From assembly GCA_030536855.1 (NCBI GenBank), contig JAUNPK010000001.1, positions 4,965-68,964 on the forward strand: DNA of 64,000 nucleotides, in the 5' to 3' direction. Shown piece by piece: positions 6,123-58,061 of this stretch. The DNA is from Eubacteriales bacterium (GTDB taxonomy: Bacteria; Bacillota; Clostridia; Lachnospirales; Lachnospiraceae). Each line of letters opens with the position of its first letter. Position 1 is the first letter of the stretch. The notes under the pieces are model-generated. The model did not search any database. It had not been told where the DNA came from and saw only the letters and a list, made by a program, of their open reading frames with translations. A program made the position numbers and the translations under genes.

Positions 6123-6224
6123 CTTGTTTACTTTCTGTTACTAATTTAATAATAAATGTGTTACAATTGTTTATATTTTATAGTACCATTGGTAAACTTA
6201 CAAGAACTTACATGAGATTTACAT

Positions 6225-6433
6225 AGGCATTTGCAAAACGCCTTTTTGGTGCTGAACAGTTGTGCAATTATACTATATTGCAAGCTAGGTGCTTTGCTGC
6301 CACCGGTGCTTAACAGCTGTATTTTAGCCGTTTATGCACCGCTGTGAGCAGCAAGTAGCAAGAGCGTGCCTAGCGGTAATATAATATAATTGCACAACGT
6401 ACAGTATTAAATCACAGAGTTTCGCAAACGCCT
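6225..6433. mobile_element. 209-bp non-autonomous fold-back (MITE-like) element with 13-bp target duplication
   Basis: ATGAGATTTACAT at 6212-6224 and 6434-6446; terminal IRs AGGCATTTGCAAAAC / GTTTCGCAAACGCCT match 13/15; nested internal IRs. Confidence 0.75.
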
Positions 6434-6465
6434 ATGAGATTTACATTTAGGAGGTGTTAATATCA

Positions 6466-8335: not shown

Positions 8336-8349
8336 ATTAATCCTCCATT

Positions 8350-8419
8350 CCGCAGGCACTTTAGTGCCGAAGGAAACGCGAGCCAAATATCAGATTTGAC
8401 TCTGCAATAAATGCTATTT
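8350..8419. repeat. Truncated copy of the multi-hairpin dispersed element (66/70 identical to 29436-29505)
   Basis: Direct alignment with the copy upstream of truA; abuts the SD of the dus gene. Confidence 0.85.
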
Positions 8420-8444
8420 TCCGTTCTAATAATATCTGTATTAT

Positions 8445-18570: not shown

Positions 18571-18829
18571 GTGTAAGCATACCACAAATATCACTGAAAA
18601 AAACCCACAAACTTGATGTTTGTGGGTTTCCATATAATAAAAATACTCTTTTTCTTATCTCTTTGTTAACGTTTTGAGAGCGAGAAAAGCCCTGAAACAA
18701 GGGATTTGTTGGTAGCAGTGTTGCATATGTGTTTTATGTTGAGAACTGCCCACAACTTCCTTTAGCTTCCATATATTTCAAATCTATTTGTCAATTTCAC
18801 TTTTAATTGTTTCCTTCAAATTATTTTTA

Positions 18830-18858
18830 TTGCATACTAACCATTTTACTGTTATTAT
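18830..18858 (+). promoter_or_regulatory. Sigma-A promoter of the putative type I toxin, copy 1
   Basis: TTGCAT-17-TATTAT with extended TG; predicted start near 18865. Confidence 0.7.
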
Positions 18859-18969
18859 TAATTTGGTGCTACCCTATTCGGTAGGCGGTTAGTTCTTCAG
18901 CATAGGGACTGTGACCCTCTGATTACATAGAAATCATCTTGTATGAAATCTTTCAAAGGAGGGATGCCA

Positions 18970-19101
18970 ATGTTGACTCTTGAAAGTCTCATTGCAGTTT
19001 TAAGTTTTGGCTTAACCTGCTTTGGACTTGGATATACACTCGGTAATAAATCACGAAAAAATAATCGCCACCGGTCTGGTAAACTGAGGCGATTATTTTA
19101 A
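18970..19101 (+). CDS. 43-aa hydrophobic peptide, putative type I toxin, copy 1 (absent from ORF track)
   Basis: MLTLESLIAVLSFGLTCFGLGYTLGNKSRKNNRHRSGKLRRLF*; SD AAGGAGGG at 18956-18963; one TM helix plus basic tail. Confidence 0.75.
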   Translation: MLTLESLIAVLSFGLTCFGLGYTLGNKSRKNNRHRSGKLRRLF

Positions 19102-19196: not shown

Positions 19197-22100
19197 TTAT
19201 TTAAGTTTTTTTCTTTTGTCATTCAATTCTGCCAATGCTACAATTGACAAAAGGAAAAGTGCTGTCCAAAGTGTTGGATTGCATTCATCACCTGTTTCCG
19301 GTTTATTCTTCTTTGTTTCAGTCTCTGTTTCCGATTTAGGTTTCCTTGCTTCAGCCTCTGCCCCCTGATCATTATCGGTCTGGGGTTCGTTTTCGGCAGA
19401 AGCGGATTTCTGAAACCGAGCATAATAAGTAGCCTCCCCTGTGGTGGTGTAGCTGATAGTATTTCCATTGTTGATCAAAATATCTTCATCAACCTTTTTA
19501 CCTTCTGCATCATACCAGCCCACAAATTCGTAACCCTCTTTTGCCGTTGCGGTGGAACTGGCTGTTGCTCCCACTACATCCGTATGAGTATAGCAGTCAA
19601 GAGTTGCTATACTGTCATCCGTGGTAACCTTCCAGTTATCTCCATCCTTTACTTGACGGATGTAGGTCTGGGTCACGGTTTCGGCAGATACGACTTTCTT
19701 AAACCGGGCATAATATGTAGCATTCCCGGTTGTGGTATAACTCAGGGTTGTTCCTTTGTTGCTTAACTTATCACTCGCAACCAGATTCCCTTCTGCATCA
19801 TACCAGCCCACGAATTCATAACCTTCTTTCGCTGTTGCAGTGGAACTGGCTGTTGCTCCCACTACATCCGTATGCGTATAATAGTCAAGGGTTGCTATTG
19901 TGTCATCCATGGTATTTCCCCAGATATTTCCATCTTTAATTTGGCGAATATAGGTCTGTGTCACCGTCTCGGCTGCTTCAATTCTCTGAAACAATGCATA
20001 ATAGATAGCATTTTCTGTGGTGGTGTAACTCAGGGTTTTCCCATTGTTGCTTAACTTATCACTCGCAACCAGATTCCCTTCTGCATCATACCAGCCCACA
20101 AATTCGTAACCCTCTTTTGCCGTTGCGGTGGAACTGGCTGTTGCTCCCACTACATCCGTATGAGTATAGCAGTCAAGAGTTGCTATACTGTCATCCGTGG
20201 TAACCTTCCAGTTATCTCCATCCTTCAACTGACGGACAAAGGTCTGTGTCACCTTTTTTTCAAATCTTGCGATATATGTTGCGCTCACAGTTGCTGTGTA
20301 GCTTAGGATGTTACTGGTTGCCCCCAGCATGGATTCTGCCACTGCATTTCCACTTTCGTCATACCAGCCCACAAACTCATAGCCTGTTCCTGCCGTCGCT
20401 GTGGAACCGGCTGTGCTTCCATACTCAACTATTAAGCTTTCAGGTGCGACAGTTCCGACGTTGGTATCGCTGGTAGCTTCCCATGTTTCCCCATTCTTTA
20501 CCTGTCTCTTATAAGTCTGGGTTACCTTGACTTTCTGGAATCGTGCGATATATGTAGCATTTGCAGTTGCTGTATAACTCAGGGTGGTTTCTGTTGTTGT
20601 TGCTGTTTCTGCTACTGCTTCTGTTTCACCGGTTGTTTCCACTTTATACCAGCCCACAAACTTATAGCCTGTTCCTGCTGTCGCTGTGGAAGTAGCAGTT
20701 GCTCCCACTACATCCGTATGGGTATAATTGGTCAGCATTCCTACTTTATTATCTGTGGTTTTTATCCATGTACTTCCCTCTAATATCTGACGGTCAAAGG
20801 TCTGGGTTACTGTTTTTTCAAATCTTGCAATATAAGTGGCACTTCCGGTTGTTGTATAACTGATGGTTTTTCCATCACTACTTAATCCTGTTGTCACCTT
20901 ATTTTCTGTGGAATCATACCAACCAACGAATTTATAGCCTTCTCCTGCTGTCGCAGTAACACTAATGTCCTTTCCTGCTACATCAACATAAGAATAACGG
21001 TCCAGGTTTCCTGCGTCATCATTATTTTCGCCCTGAATCCCTTTCCAGTTATCCCCATCCTTTACCTGGCGCTTATAGGTCTGGGTTACTGTTCCAGAAA
21101 ATCTTGCATAGTAAGTGCCAACATTTTCTTGCATTTCGGTAAAACTGTAGGTTGCATGCGTCGTAATCAAATTTGCATCACTGCCGGTACCATCATACCA
21201 GCCCTCAAATACATAACCCTCTTTTGCCGTTGCCTTGGCAGTTACAATTTCATCCGTTTCGGCAAAATAAGCTTTTCCACCGTTTGCATTATATGCAGCC
21301 ACATAATTGGCATCCGTATTTGGTACACTGGTAATCTCAACCGTTCCACCTGTATCAGAATTGGTATATCCTTCACCACTATTTATTTGCGGAAGAAATG
21401 CCTGCCGCCACCGCCACTGGGCAACCATAGTAAGACCTTTGTGGATATTGGCATAACTAAGTGTTGCACTCGAATCATTTGTGGTCCATTTTGTATATGT
21501 TGATCTATCAGTCTCCTGCTTTAGGTCAGGCGCAGCAATACTCTTATTCCATATTTGAAAATACTGTTCCTTCTTCGTACTTTCTCCACTAAAATCACAA
21601 GCAATGGTATGCTCTGCCGGAAGCAGTAATGAACCTAGTTTATCAGCATTTACCTTAACCGTACCCTGCGGTATATCACTCACTGTATCACCGGTCAATA
21701 ACCATCCCATAAATTTCCAGCCATCTTTACCTTCTGCTGCATGGGATACATAGGGAGAAATATATGTAAATGTATTTCCCTCACCCGTTTGAGGAACCGG
21801 CTTGAAGCTGTATACATTACAAGCTTCTTCCGTATTATAAGTCCTTTCAACAGTATAGACACTTCCCCCATTCGGGTCATAAGTCACTGTAGGACTCTTG
21901 ATAAAGACAAAATGCAAATCTGTTGCCGTAGTGATATTATCCAGATAATAGGTATAAATGATATCTCCGCCATCGTTAGTATATTTTATCCATTTATTCT
22001 TCTTTTCTTCATTTGTCAAATTATCCTGATAATCAATCTCATTTCCATCTTTTTTCAAAAATGTAGTTACCAAATTTCCCGATGTATCCTGTACCGTATA

Positions 22101-26221: not shown

Positions 26222-26682
26222 AGGTTTTTTCCTCTTCTGTAAAAGGTGGATTTGGATTTATCTTGTTTCCATGATACCACTCCTTTATCGTCTCATTTTA
26301 TGATATCATTTATTGTATCATTTAATAACTCATTTTATTCGTTCGTCTATGATTTTCCCACGTTATCTGCGAACACAAGAAGAACCTCGATTCCGCTTCG
26401 CTTCATCTCGGTCATTCTTGCGTTCCTATGTATTGCATATGTGTTTTATGTTGAGAACTGCCCACAACTTCCTTTAGCTTCCGTATATTTCAAATCCCAT
26501 TTGTCAATTTCACTTTTAATTGTTTTCTTCAAATTATTTTTATTGCATACTAACCATTTTACTGTTATCATTAATTTGGTACTACACTATTCGGTAAGCG
26601 GTTAGTCCTTCAGCAGAGGGACTGTGACCCTCTGATTACATAGAAATCATCTTGTATGAAATCTTTCAAAGGAGGGATGCCA

Positions 26683-26814
26683 ATGTTGACTCTTGAAAGT
26701 CTCATTGCAGTTTTAAGTTTTGGCTTAACCTGCTTTGGACTTGGATATACACTCGGTAATAAATCACGAAAAAATAATCGCCACCGGTCTGGTAAACTGA
26801 GGCGATTATTTTAA
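26683..26814 (+). CDS. 43-aa hydrophobic peptide, putative type I toxin, copy 2 (identical CDS)
   Basis: Same sequence and SD as 18970-19101; promoter TTGCAT(26543)-17-TATCAT(26566). Confidence 0.75.
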   Translation: MLTLESLIAVLSFGLTCFGLGYTLGNKSRKNNRHRSGKLRRLF

Positions 26815-28681: not shown

Positions 28682-29422
28682 CTATTCAACATATTCAATG
28701 TTCATAAGTGTCAGACCTTGAGGCGGAGCTGTCTGTCCTGCCTCTGTCCTATCACACGCAGAAAGCATCTCCTTTATATAATCCGGTTTATATTTTCCTT
28801 TCCCCACCTGAACCAGCGTTCCTGTAATTATCCTAACCATATTATAGAGAAATCCATTTCCCATTATGTCAAGGTATATCTCATCATTATGGCGTTTAAG
28901 TTGAATATCATAAATGGTTCTCACTGTTGATTCTGCCTGCGTCCTCACGCAGCAAAAACTTTTAAAATCATGTTCACCCACTATGTATTTTGCAGCCTCT
29001 TTCATAGCTTCAATATCCAGTTTTCCCTTTACATTCCATGTATAATTCCTTTTCTGTGGCACAGGAAATTCGGTATTTAGTATTCTGTAACGGTATGTCT
29101 TTCTGGTCTCACAATGTCTTGGATGAAAATCCGGGGCAACCTCACATGAACTTTGTACAGCAATATCCTCCGGTAAAAATCTGTTAAGAGCATAAGAAAA
29201 TCTTTCACCGGGTATTGAAGATTCCGTGTCAAACACAGCTACATTACCCAGGGCATGCACACCGGTATCCGTCCTGCTGGCACCTGTTACATGAACCTTC
29301 TCTTTTGTAAGTTCATATATGGCTTTATCCAATTCATTTTCTATGGTTGGTTCATTAGGCTGTATCTGCCATCCGCAATAGTTGGTTCCGTCATAAGCAA
29401 CCACCAGCTTAATTCTCTTCAT
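28682..29422 (-). CDS. truA: tRNA pseudouridine(38-40) synthase
   Basis: YDGTNYCGWQ, GASRTDTGVHA, FLYNMVR and APPQGL motifs. Confidence 0.96.
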   Translation of the reverse strand: MKRIKLVVAYDGTNYCGWQIQPNEPTIENELDKAIYELTKEKVHVTGASRTDTGVHALGNVAVFDTESSIPGERFSYALNRFLPEDIAVQSSCEVAPDFHPRHCETRKTYRYRILNTEFPVPQKRNYTWNVKGKLDIEAMKEAAKYIVGEHDFKSFCCVRTQAESTVRTIYDIQLKRHNDEIYLDIMGNGFLYNMVRIITGTLVQVGKGKYKPDYIKEMLSACDRTEAGQTAPPQGLTLMNIEYVE

Positions 29423-29435
29423 ACTATTCCCCACT

Positions 29436-29564
29436 CCGCAGGCACTTTAGTGCCAAAGGAATCGCGAGCCAAATATCAGATTTGGCTCTGCGATAAATGC
29501 TATTTGTGGTGCCTGCGGCACAAATAGCCGTATGAAAAATCAGCGCATCAGCGTGATTTTTCAC
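29436..29564. mobile_element. 129-bp multi-hairpin insertion with 13-bp target duplication that includes the truA SD
   Basis: ACTATTCCCCACT at 29423-29435 and 29565-29577; four internal hairpins; related copies at 8350 and 39869. Confidence 0.72.
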
Positions 29565-29591
29565 ACTATTCCCCACTAAATTCAATCATAT

Positions 29592-30392
29592 TTACAAAAA
29601 TATTCTAATTACAACGGCGATCAAAAGATAAAGTCCCATATAAAGATACGCCATCCGGTCTCTCTTCTCATATTTTAACGGCTTCATCTTAGTTCTTCCC
29701 TCGGAACCATGATAACATCTGGCTTCCATGGCAAGCGCAAGATCATTGGCTCTTCTGAAGGCTGATACAAATAATGGTACAAGTATGGGAACCATCGCCT
29801 TGGCTCTCTTCAATAAATTGCCATTTTCAAAATCTGCACCTCTTGCCATCTGGGCTTTCATTATCTTATCCGTCTCTTCTATAAGGATAGGAATAAATCT
29901 TAATGCTATGGACATCATCATGGCAACCTCATGTACTGGCACCTTTATATATTTTAAAAATCCCAGCCCTTTTTCAAGTCCATCCGTAAGATTATTAGGT
30001 GTAGTTGTAAGTGTCATAAGAGACGAACCGATAATCAGGTATATAATCCTTATAACCATAAATACAGCCGTTTTTAATCCCTGCTTTGTAATTGTAATCT
30101 TCCATACCGTTATCAACGGGTCTCCTGTGGTAAGAAAAAGATTAAATGCTGCACTTATTACTATTAATATAACTACCGCTTTCAAGCCCTTAACAATGAA
30201 CTTAAAAGGTATTTTGGAAATTTTTAAGACAGCGGCAAGACAAAATGTTATGAATATATACATCCATAAATTCTGTCCAAGAAATAGCGACACTATAAAT
30301 ATTAATGTACCCATAAGCTTTACTCTTGGGTCTAATTTATGAATCACTGAATCCGCTTTATAATACTGACCTATTGTAATATCTCTAATCAT
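29592..30392 (-). CDS. ecfT: ECF transporter transmembrane component T
   Basis: LDPRVK, ALRFIP, AQMARG and AMEARCY motifs. Confidence 0.95.
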   Translation of the reverse strand: MIRDITIGQYYKADSVIHKLDPRVKLMGTLIFIVSLFLGQNLWMYIFITFCLAAVLKISKIPFKFIVKGLKAVVILIVISAAFNLFLTTGDPLITVWKITITKQGLKTAVFMVIRIIYLIIGSSLMTLTTTPNNLTDGLEKGLGFLKYIKVPVHEVAMMMSIALRFIPILIEETDKIMKAQMARGADFENGNLLKRAKAMVPILVPLFVSAFRRANDLALAMEARCYHGSEGRTKMKPLKYEKRDRMAYLYMGLYLLIAVVIRIFL

Positions 30393-39855: not shown

Positions 39856-39868
39856 TTTAACCTCCATG

Positions 39869-39960
39869 CCGCGAGTGCTAACGAATTATTAATAACACAG
39901 TTTGTGGAGCTCGCGTCACAAACTGCCATGTGAAAAGCTATTATGCAGACCTCTCACATC
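39869..39960. repeat. Diverged member of the multi-hairpin element family in the rpsE-rpmD spacer
   Basis: CAGTTTGTG-10 nt-CACAAACTG-CC-ATGTGAAAA parallels GCTATTTGTG-10 nt-CACAAATAGC-CGTATGAAAA at 29499-29538. Confidence 0.55.
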
Positions 39961-49002: not shown

Positions 49003-49249
49003 AAAAAAAGTCGCCTCCTTCGCACTTTATAAATGTAAGTACGACAAGCGGTGACTGTACACACTCCCACGCGTATCGAAAGTTTTCACTCGACAAAACA
49101 ACGCGCGTCATTTCTGCCTGTGCAGATGATATAGGTACAGTGACTTGTCGCCAGATTATTCGCCGGTTACCCGGCCTTGACATTCGCTCCACGGAAAAAC
49201 CTGCATATTAGCAGCAACCTCACGCTTCTACGCTATCAATGTCACAGCA
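49003..49249 (-). ncRNA. Structured S10-operon leader (Clostridia-type)
   Basis: About 245-nt 5' UTR with GAGGTTGC, CCGTGG and CCGGGTAACCGG segments and GACAAG/CTTGTC pairing; not model-tested. Confidence 0.6.
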
Positions 49250-57917: not shown

Positions 57918-58061
57918 AAATGCTTCGCATTACTTTCGTACAGTGCGAGCCTGACTCCGTCAGTCTCTACGCGCTATCGCACTCTATGAGAATAAATATA
58001 AAAGACCTCAGTTACGAGCAAGCTCGCACTGAGGTCTTTTATATTTATTCTCGCACTGTAC
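57918..58061. repeat. Nested palindromic element directly 3' of tuf
   Basis: 25-bp perfect IR 57988-58012/58028-58052; 12-bp IR 57938-57949/58050-58061; small hairpins. Confidence 0.8.

Follow-up and report, generated by a model that had tools for sequence, protein, structure and literature searches.

The closest described concept to the repeat family analyzed here is that of putative mobile promoters, or reused 5' regions, which are defined as sequences with at least 80% identity over at least 50 nt upstream of nonhomologous genes of one genome, at positions −150 to −50 (Matus-Garcia, Nijveen, and van Passel 2012; PMC3575422). Like mobile promoters, the family is a highly similar noncoding sequence that precedes unrelated genes, is common to several genera, and is not in Rfam. 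Its ten full-length copies in the source genome have 77–98% core identity, stand before unrelated genes, and overlap positions −150 to −50. Unlike mobile promoters, which have been read as promoters, the family reaches the start codon, carries a Shine–Dalgarno (SD) sequence, has SD-like direct repeats at both ends, and shows no promoter-like site in a consensus scan. Prokaryotic MITEs such as Correia, ERIC, and RUP are likewise small, multicopy, noncoding, structured, intergenic, and cotranscribed with neighbors, but the family lacks terminal inverted repeats (TIRs) and a fixed target duplication, and is strict in its orientation and in abutting start codons. Shine–Dalgarno sequences, ribosomes, and start codons go unmentioned in a review of such MITEs from 2024 (PMC10969869).

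Other systems share single features with the family. REP/BIME-RAYT systems and IS200/IS605-derived palindromes are also hairpin-rich, oriented, and free of TIRs, but the present family has a far longer unit with four distinct hairpins and SD-bearing direct repeats, and shows no co-occurrence with Y1 HUH transposases. When compared with IS200/IS605 elements, the unit has hairpins at both ends, yet it lies between SD-like direct repeats. BOX elements of Streptococcus pneumoniae are modular multi-hairpin repeats near genes, with copies that lack modules. Unlike this family, BOX modules are not known to end in an SD-bearing repeat or to have a fixed position at start codons, and they occur in a different taxon. 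Integron cassettes with their attC sites, and Campbell-type integration, resemble the family in having hybrid core sites beside hairpin DNA and solo cores after loss, but the family has no cassette ORF, its targets are numerous and scattered where integrons use a single attI, and the positions of its junctions vary. STAB-SD, in the leader of the Bacillus thuringiensis cry mRNA, is a single-gene stabilizer. The 5' repeat of the family is similarly an SD-like leader sequence that does not start the main ORF, but the family is a dispersed repeat. The term STAB-SD occurs in a passage of PMC5737220.

The window is a stretch of 64,000 nt (contig C20:4965–68964 of a 99%-complete assembly of 2.40 Mb with 36.5% G+C) in which an earlier note, made from the sequence alone, had described a 129-bp element between exact 13-nt repeats that hold the SD of truA. 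The coordinates are correct (table 1). The sequence ACTATTCCCCACT is exact at both ends with a spacing of 129 nt, and the minus strand from 29577 to 29420 reads AGTGGGGAATAGT, the 129-nt core GTGAAAAATCACGC...GTGCCTGCGG, AGTGGGGAATAGT, and the truA ATG. The core ends do not form inverted repeats, as had also been stated; the first 25 nt of the core and the reverse complement of its last 25 nt match at 5 of 25 positions. The family unit is ∼142 nt in size. Its four hairpins come first, and CTGCGG-AATGGRGATTAGT, made up of an SD and a spacer of 6 nt, closes it. Because the stop codon of the upstream CbiQ/EcfT family gene is 14 nt from the 5' repeat, the element at truA is inside an operon.

Table 1. 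Coordinates, in the window, of the truA element, its neighboring genes, and two further copies of the family
Feature	Position	Strand	Description
5' copy of the 13-nt repeat	29565..29577	-	AGTGGGGAATAGT; SD-like; the GTG that follows is the first triplet of hairpin 1
Family consensus of the 13-nt repeat			AATGGRGATTAGT
Core	29436..29564	-	129 nt; GTGAAAAATCACGC...GTGCCTGCGG; four hairpins, no terminal inverted repeats
Hairpin 1	29530..29566	-	Stem takes in the RUG triplet and, before it, the final GU of the 5' repeat
Hairpin 2	29499..29528	-	GCUAUUUGUG ... CACAAAUAGC
Hairpin 3	29463..29492	-	CGCAGAGCCAAAU ... AUUUGGCUCGCG
Hairpin 4	29433..29462	-	AUUCC..GGCAC UAAA GUGCC..GGAGU; outer stem extends into the 3' repeat
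3' copy of the 13-nt repeat	29423..29435	-	Contains the truA SD (GGGGA); abuts the ATG
truA	28682..29422	-	tRNA pseudouridine synthase, PF01416; ATG 29422-29420
CbiQ/EcfT family gene	29592..30392	-	Upstream, codirectional
dus copy	8336..8420	-	5'-shortened; half of hairpin 2, hairpins 3-4, CTGCGGAATGGAGGATTAAT, then dus ATG 8335-8333
rpmD copy	about 39856..39937	-	Old, degenerate; 3' arm of hairpin 1, hairpin 2, GCGGCATGGAGGTTAAA, ATG 39855-39853

Structure is conserved in the family. The core is more stably folded than shuffled controls, with z scores of −4.9 for the mRNA strand and −7.5 for its complement. When three genera were compared, compensatory changes were seen in each of the four stems. 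The base of hairpin 1 covaries (ATG..CAT, GTG..CAC, or CTG..CAG), its upper stem varies between CACGC/GCG, CTTAT/ATGAAG, and ATGCC/GGCAT, and hairpin 4 between GGCAC/GTGCC and GACGC/GCGTC. G-U and A-C mismatches are about equal in frequency and therefore do not reveal which strand is under selection, or whether selection is on DNA or RNA.

A conserved upstream peptide was considered, as the truA copy has a 46-codon open frame that starts with GTG and stops at a TAG of the 3' repeat, and was rejected because most copies have frameshifts or early stops and compensatory stem changes scramble the peptide. Also rejected was a general motif of a hairpin immediately before GGAATGGAG, as it is not commoner there (33%) than before other SD contexts (28%). 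A scan of Rfam, proposed in the earlier note, gave no match at gathering score and, at E ≤ 10, only chance microRNA matches on hairpin 1; the element matches none of the Rfam families, including Clostridiales-1, riboswitches, and r-protein leaders. A consensus scan, which is weak evidence, found no sigma-70-like site in the element above shuffle expectation, and no terminator-like site is present within it.

Across the source genome, blastn and nhmmer detect ∼18 copies, of which 10 are full length and about 8 are shortened. Shortened copies are missing 5' or internal parts and every one retains the 3' end, CTGCGG-AATGGAG-N5-7. In 17 of 18 cases, the copy directly abuts the ATG of a same-strand ORF of at least 180 aa. 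The GGAG sits 5–8 nt before the downstream ATG and the copy has the orientation of the downstream gene; co-orientation with transcription, claimed for the members in the window, thus extends to the ∼18 copies genome-wide. The downstream genes are functionally unrelated and encode TruA, Dus, IspF, MnmA, FolD, SpoVAD, PTS EIIABC, chorismate mutase/prephenate dehydratase (PheA), an ABC ATPase, a phosphoribosyltransferase, and a capsule-type ATPase. Nine or ten copies (about half) are <40 nt downstream of a codirectional ORF. The window has the three members that had been listed for it: the copy at truA is full, that at dus is partial, and that at rpmD is real but degenerate (nhmmer E = 4e-4, with compensatory changes in hairpin 2). 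In the other copies, the 3' repeat is near-invariant (CTGCGG AATGGAG ...) and the 5' flank is SD-like, ending in (A/T)AGT and followed by RTG. A search with nhmmer found no longer element in the source genome that shares these ends.

The 13-mer, including its SD, is itself part of the family. Both ends read AATGGRGATTAGT in copies from two other genera. The 13-mer plus start codon, AATGGRGNTTAGTRTG, is present at 2–43 sites per genome in eight carriers and at 0–1 in 12 element-free genomes, and the looser pattern GGAATGGRG-N5-7-ATG at 50–106 sites in carriers versus 0–8 in noncarriers. By both counts, the repeat is no natural SD context. Being common in carriers and nearly absent from element-free genomes, the 13-mer plus ATG indicates that the element carries the SD of the downstream gene. 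On sequence evidence, the element brings the SD from which that gene is predicted to be translated. Two earlier statements consequently need revision. Copies were said to end within a few nucleotides of an SD, but the 13-mer, which is conserved in the family, contains the SD. The 13 bp were also taken for a target duplication, but several genera have AATGGRGATTAGT as the terminal repeat of the family, and element-free genomes lack it.

The source genome has 62 GGAATGGRG-N5-7-ATG sites, 56 of which precede an ORF of at least 60 aa. A recognizable core is upstream of 22 sites, and 38 sites have none. Since most of these sites are coreless, many genes seem to retain an element-derived SD after loss of the core. 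By bringing its own SD to start codons, the element appears to have changed the translation start signals of about 1–4% of genes in carrier genomes. Two Lachnospira genomes also have such sites, 50 in G049, where the covariance model had no match, and 25 in G024, where a DNA search had none; they may have a sister family with other hairpins or footprints alone.

Empty orthologous sites, which the earlier note had proposed to look for, were found in the sister species G023, the main comparison, with flanks 88–97% identical to those of the source genome. At locus C25, where flanks are identical at 139 of 147 positions, G023 has ...TTTC TAAGTAGTAGGAGGCAGT ATGGAAGAG, that is, GGAGGCAGT-ATG. The source genome has ...TTTC TGAGTAACAGGAGAACAGT, 141 nt ending CTGCGGAATGGAGATTAGT, and ATGGAAGAG, or in short form GGAGAACAGT, 141 nt ending AATGGAGATTAGT, and ATG. 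Thus, the unit went in immediately 5' of the ATG, and upstream of it the native SD was left in place. Across pairs of filled and empty sites, the inserted unit is about 141–143 nt in size. At locus C21a, G023 reads CAAGGAGGATTAT ATGTTAGAT (CAAGGAGGATTAT-ATG) and the source genome reads CAAGGAGGATAGT, core, AATGGAGATTTAT, and ATGTTAGAT. The 5' copy combines the native left part with AGT of the element and the 3' copy combines the left part of the element with the native TAT. This reciprocal hybrid is the outcome expected of a crossover inside the SD–spacer region and not of a duplication by a staggered cut. Locus C21a is the one with a clean hybrid junction; others are compatible with it but blurred by 5–25% divergence.

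Two copies exclusive to G023 follow the same junction logic relative to their sites in the source genome. At loci with an empty site, the 5' copy of the repeat is native or hybrid and the 3' copy is element-derived or hybrid, which is not what a 13-bp duplication would leave. At two to four loci, the native SD remains as a pseudo-RBS (ribosome-binding site) at the 5' edge of the element or is replaced. Locus C21b (G000 C21:71636–71774 versus G023 C75:26400–26680) has differing cores between the same flanks (GAGTATAACAGT ... AATGGAGGTATTT ATG). Its core in G023 is shorter and ends with GAACG-TAAA-CGTTC, a compensated version of hairpin 4. At the truA site, the element is absent from every other Lachnospira genome, and distant ones have an ordinary AGGAGG. 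G023 has GGTGGAATAGT GTG AAA AGA at this site, a sequence that could be a footprint joining the 5' junction of the element to the gene. Exact look-ups of TruA and EcfT returned one other sample, and the element is present there too.

Copies at other loci have decayed through loss of internal or 5' sequence but have kept the 3' SD, as at dus and at C26_46911, where the deletion is 72 nt long and lies between GTGCC repeats. For five filled loci, relatives in the G168 genus have an orthologous site that is empty or has a solo AATGGAG SD, and junctions are less clean because flanks are just 70–85% identical. Ends can be redundant beyond 13 nt. On contig C19 of the source genome and at sites i and m of G168, the extra redundant sequence is CTGCGG at the left or GAAAAATC at the right. 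In the family as a whole, redundancy is 13–26 nt. G438, a complete 3.08-Mb genome of the G168 genus, has 19 AATGGRGNTTAGTRTG sites. Most are solo "ATG" ends with no paired "GTG" end ∼140 nt upstream, and footprints or truncated copies outnumber full copies.

The two ends of single copies give a less distinct signal. They agree weakly (9.2 versus 8.8 identities, p = 0.08; 18 versus 12.9 shared nonconsensus positions, p = 0.08), and with p = 0.08 by two statistics, within-copy agreement was rejected as proof of duplication at insertion. Ends identical at 13 of 13 positions occur in 2 of 25 copies (truA and copy e of G168) relative to 0.08 expected from family frequencies. The excess suggests that some insertions were into donor-matching sites, which are probably older footprints, or that ends were later homogenized. 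The 5' copy of the repeat is conserved on its right side and the 3' copy on its left. This gradient fits hybrid junctions, but the fit is weakened because the same bases pair in hairpins 1 and 4.

Distribution of the family is patchy. Scanning Lachnospiraceae with a covariance model, as the earlier note had suggested, was productive: a model built from 14 copies identifies the element in 35 of 201 genomes, sampled at one per genus (35 of 200 genera), and many carrier genomes have at least 14 scored model matches. The same model finds the element in none of about 195 genomes from other Clostridia families. In Lachnospira, 8 of 25 species carry the element. Core identity between genera averages 81% and is up to 88%, which overlaps the 77–98% within the source genome, and a mean core identity of 91% in G168 reflects a recent burst. 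The overlap in identity, the burst in G168, and the patchy distribution point to horizontal spread plus amplification bursts. Copies c–f of G125 (loci L069–L072) keep hairpins 1–2 and the 3' repeat but have a different long hairpin swapped in for hairpins 3 and 4, a composition that shows that the family is modular. Searches of plasmids found no match to the element and those of IMG/VR no exact pattern match. Three contigs from human fecal viromes (MT837007.1, MT838414.1, and MT836788.1, each "UNVERIFIED Bacteriophage sp.") have a full-length copy with 77–79% identity; these fecal "bacteriophage" contigs may be bacterial fragments.

That the family is a non-autonomous mobile cassette carrying an RBS is well supported. 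We infer, with a probability of about one half, that this cassette integrates by short-homology recombination at the SD–start motif. The SD–spacer–RTG end of the element would recombine with the SD–spacer–ATG of a gene, by one of two routes. A circular form with one repeat could integrate by a single crossover. Alternatively, there could be two template switches during replication, with fork stalling promoted by hairpins and the donor copied from its 3' to its 5' repeat. By either route, the core would end up between SD-like direct repeats that are hybrids of native and element sequence. Sites with a prior likeness to the repeat, among them the footprints that earlier copies left, would be preferred targets. 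Copying that stopped early would yield 5'-shortened copies, and slippage between repeats would cause loss of the element with a solo AATGGAG-type SD remaining. No circle, tandem, or switch-product intermediate was observed. The truA copy has two identical nonconsensus repeats, which recombination into hybrids accommodates only if the target was an older footprint or the donor matched.

Because the element carries an SD, insertion is tolerable at start codons, even in operons of essential genes. The part of the earlier inference that held is that the element is non-autonomous and tolerated in essential operons. The part that did not is that it inserts harmlessly upstream of an RBS, as it separates the native SD from the ATG and provides the SD in its place. 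We suggest, tentatively and with more doubt than conviction, that the family may represent selfish elements of a new class, with the universal SD–spacer–start motif as attachment site. Such an element would have no enzyme of its own, would copy itself into genes by short-homology recombination or template switching, would pay with a replacement RBS, and by insertion and loss would have left AATGGAG-type RBSs at 50–100 genes per carrier in many genera of Lachnospiraceae.

Other explanations account for parts of these data. A trans-acting transposase that cuts or copies and pastes the element, with a 13-bp staggered cut, would make the 13-mers target-site duplications. The exact 13 of 13 repeats of the truA copy and G168 copy e, above expectation from family frequencies, are consistent with this, as is the presence in the same genome of an unrelated TIR-MITE that makes 10–13-bp duplications. 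But a staggered cut at arbitrary targets would not yield a single 13-mer consensus over loci and genera that is absent from element-free genomes, nor flank pairs that are unequal to the native sequence and depart toward the element consensus, as at C21a and C25. With redundancy of 13 to 26 nt, no TIRs, and no longer partner element in the source genome, we regard such a transposon as decidedly unlikely. The earlier conclusion that the element is not a typical DDE MITE is borne out by the lack of TIRs and of a fixed-length duplication of an arbitrary target. The parallel that had been drawn to the element at 6225 is superficial, since that element is an ordinary TIR-MITE with true 10–13-bp duplications. 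A dedicated tyrosine or serine recombinase, or an integron-like enzyme that acts on folded hairpins, could recombine a circle into SD-like secondary sites with the 13-mer as core attachment site. The hybrid cores that flank the C21a copy are the expected product of reciprocal site-specific recombination, conserved hairpins adjoin both cores, and solo 13-mers are common. However, the position of the crossover varies within the 13-mer and redundancy extends into CTGCGG or GAAAAATC, unlike a fixed cleavage site, and we consider a dedicated enzyme unlikely.

The family could instead be a functional structured 5'-UTR module that selection maintains, that is rarely copied between genes, and that is not selfish, such as a stabilizer with a STAB-SD-like decoy RBS, an insulator, or a protein-binding leader. 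All four stems are preserved by compensatory changes, copies are always in the transcribed orientation inside mRNAs, and the 5' pseudo-RBS resembles the stabilizing SD of Bacillus leaders. Yet the downstream genes have no common function, presence is patchy even within one genus with sister-species orthologues lacking the element, and copies decay by deletion with the SD end alone kept. The equal frequency of G-U and A-C mismatches gives no sign of selection on the RNA strand and the element has no Rfam family, promoter, or terminator; in our judgment, a functional leader is improbable. The two options raised in the earlier note, HUH-type and RNA-templated mobilization, fared worse. Movement as single-stranded DNA of a palindrome-associated element by a Y1 HUH transposase (IS200/IS605 TnpA or RAYT) would fit the subterminal hairpins, lack of TIRs, fixed orientation, and a short conserved motif (TAGT) at the left flank and right end. 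Copying of mRNA leaders by a reverse transcriptase, SINE-like or retron-like, would fit a constant 3' end with 5'-shortened copies, variable redundancy of ends, and location in transcribed leaders. Co-occurrence tests, which covered these two enzyme families, argue against both. Y1_Tnp (PF01797) is in 11 of 20 carriers versus 12 of 20 noncarriers and is absent from G168, with its >40 repeat ends, and from G110, G124, G176, G199, G205, and G238, making the first very unlikely. RVT_1 (PF00078) is in 10 of 20 carriers versus 13 of 20 noncarriers and is absent from the source genome, G168 (the richest carrier in the family sample), G058, G110, G007, and G011. Some 5' shortening is moreover a later deletion at orthologous sites, and we see hardly any prospect for RNA-templated copying.

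If the reading of the family as a mobile RBS cassette is true, RBSs of abundant human-gut Lachnospiraceae are partly mobile. In each carrier, 50–106 genes would use the SD context GGAATGGRG, which is nearly absent from related element-free genomes, and translation-initiation signals would have been replaced horizontally and repeatedly, including in essential operons (truA, ispF, folD, mnmA, and rpmD). The family provides a testable case for the movement of reused 5' regions. It also provides a natural, portable module of hairpins plus RBS from which tools could be built for these bacteria, whose engineering is difficult, and calls for caution in prediction of RBSs and gene starts in carrier genomes.

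The window has other structured or repeated features. The unrelated TIR-MITE is 209 bp in size (window 6212–6446; ends TAGGCRTTTGCGAAAC / GTTTCGCAAAYGCCTA) and is present at nine other places in the genome, as well as in the ecfT–truA spacer of G023. Its 10 near-full copies are flanked by duplications of 10–13 bp that differ between copies and are therefore true target-site duplications. In all copies, an SD-like GGAGG/CCTCC is near one end, at a distance of at most about 25 nt. Two Rfam families score above the gathering score, a Clostridiales-1 RNA directly after the stop codon of EF-Tu (window 57941–58058, minus strand) and an S10-Clostridia ribosomal protein leader (window 49145–49238, minus strand). 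A tandem array of 288-nt (96-codon) repeats is in a large minus-strand ORF (window 19373–21248), and a pair of 300-nt direct repeats is at 18786–19085 and 26499–26798 of the window.
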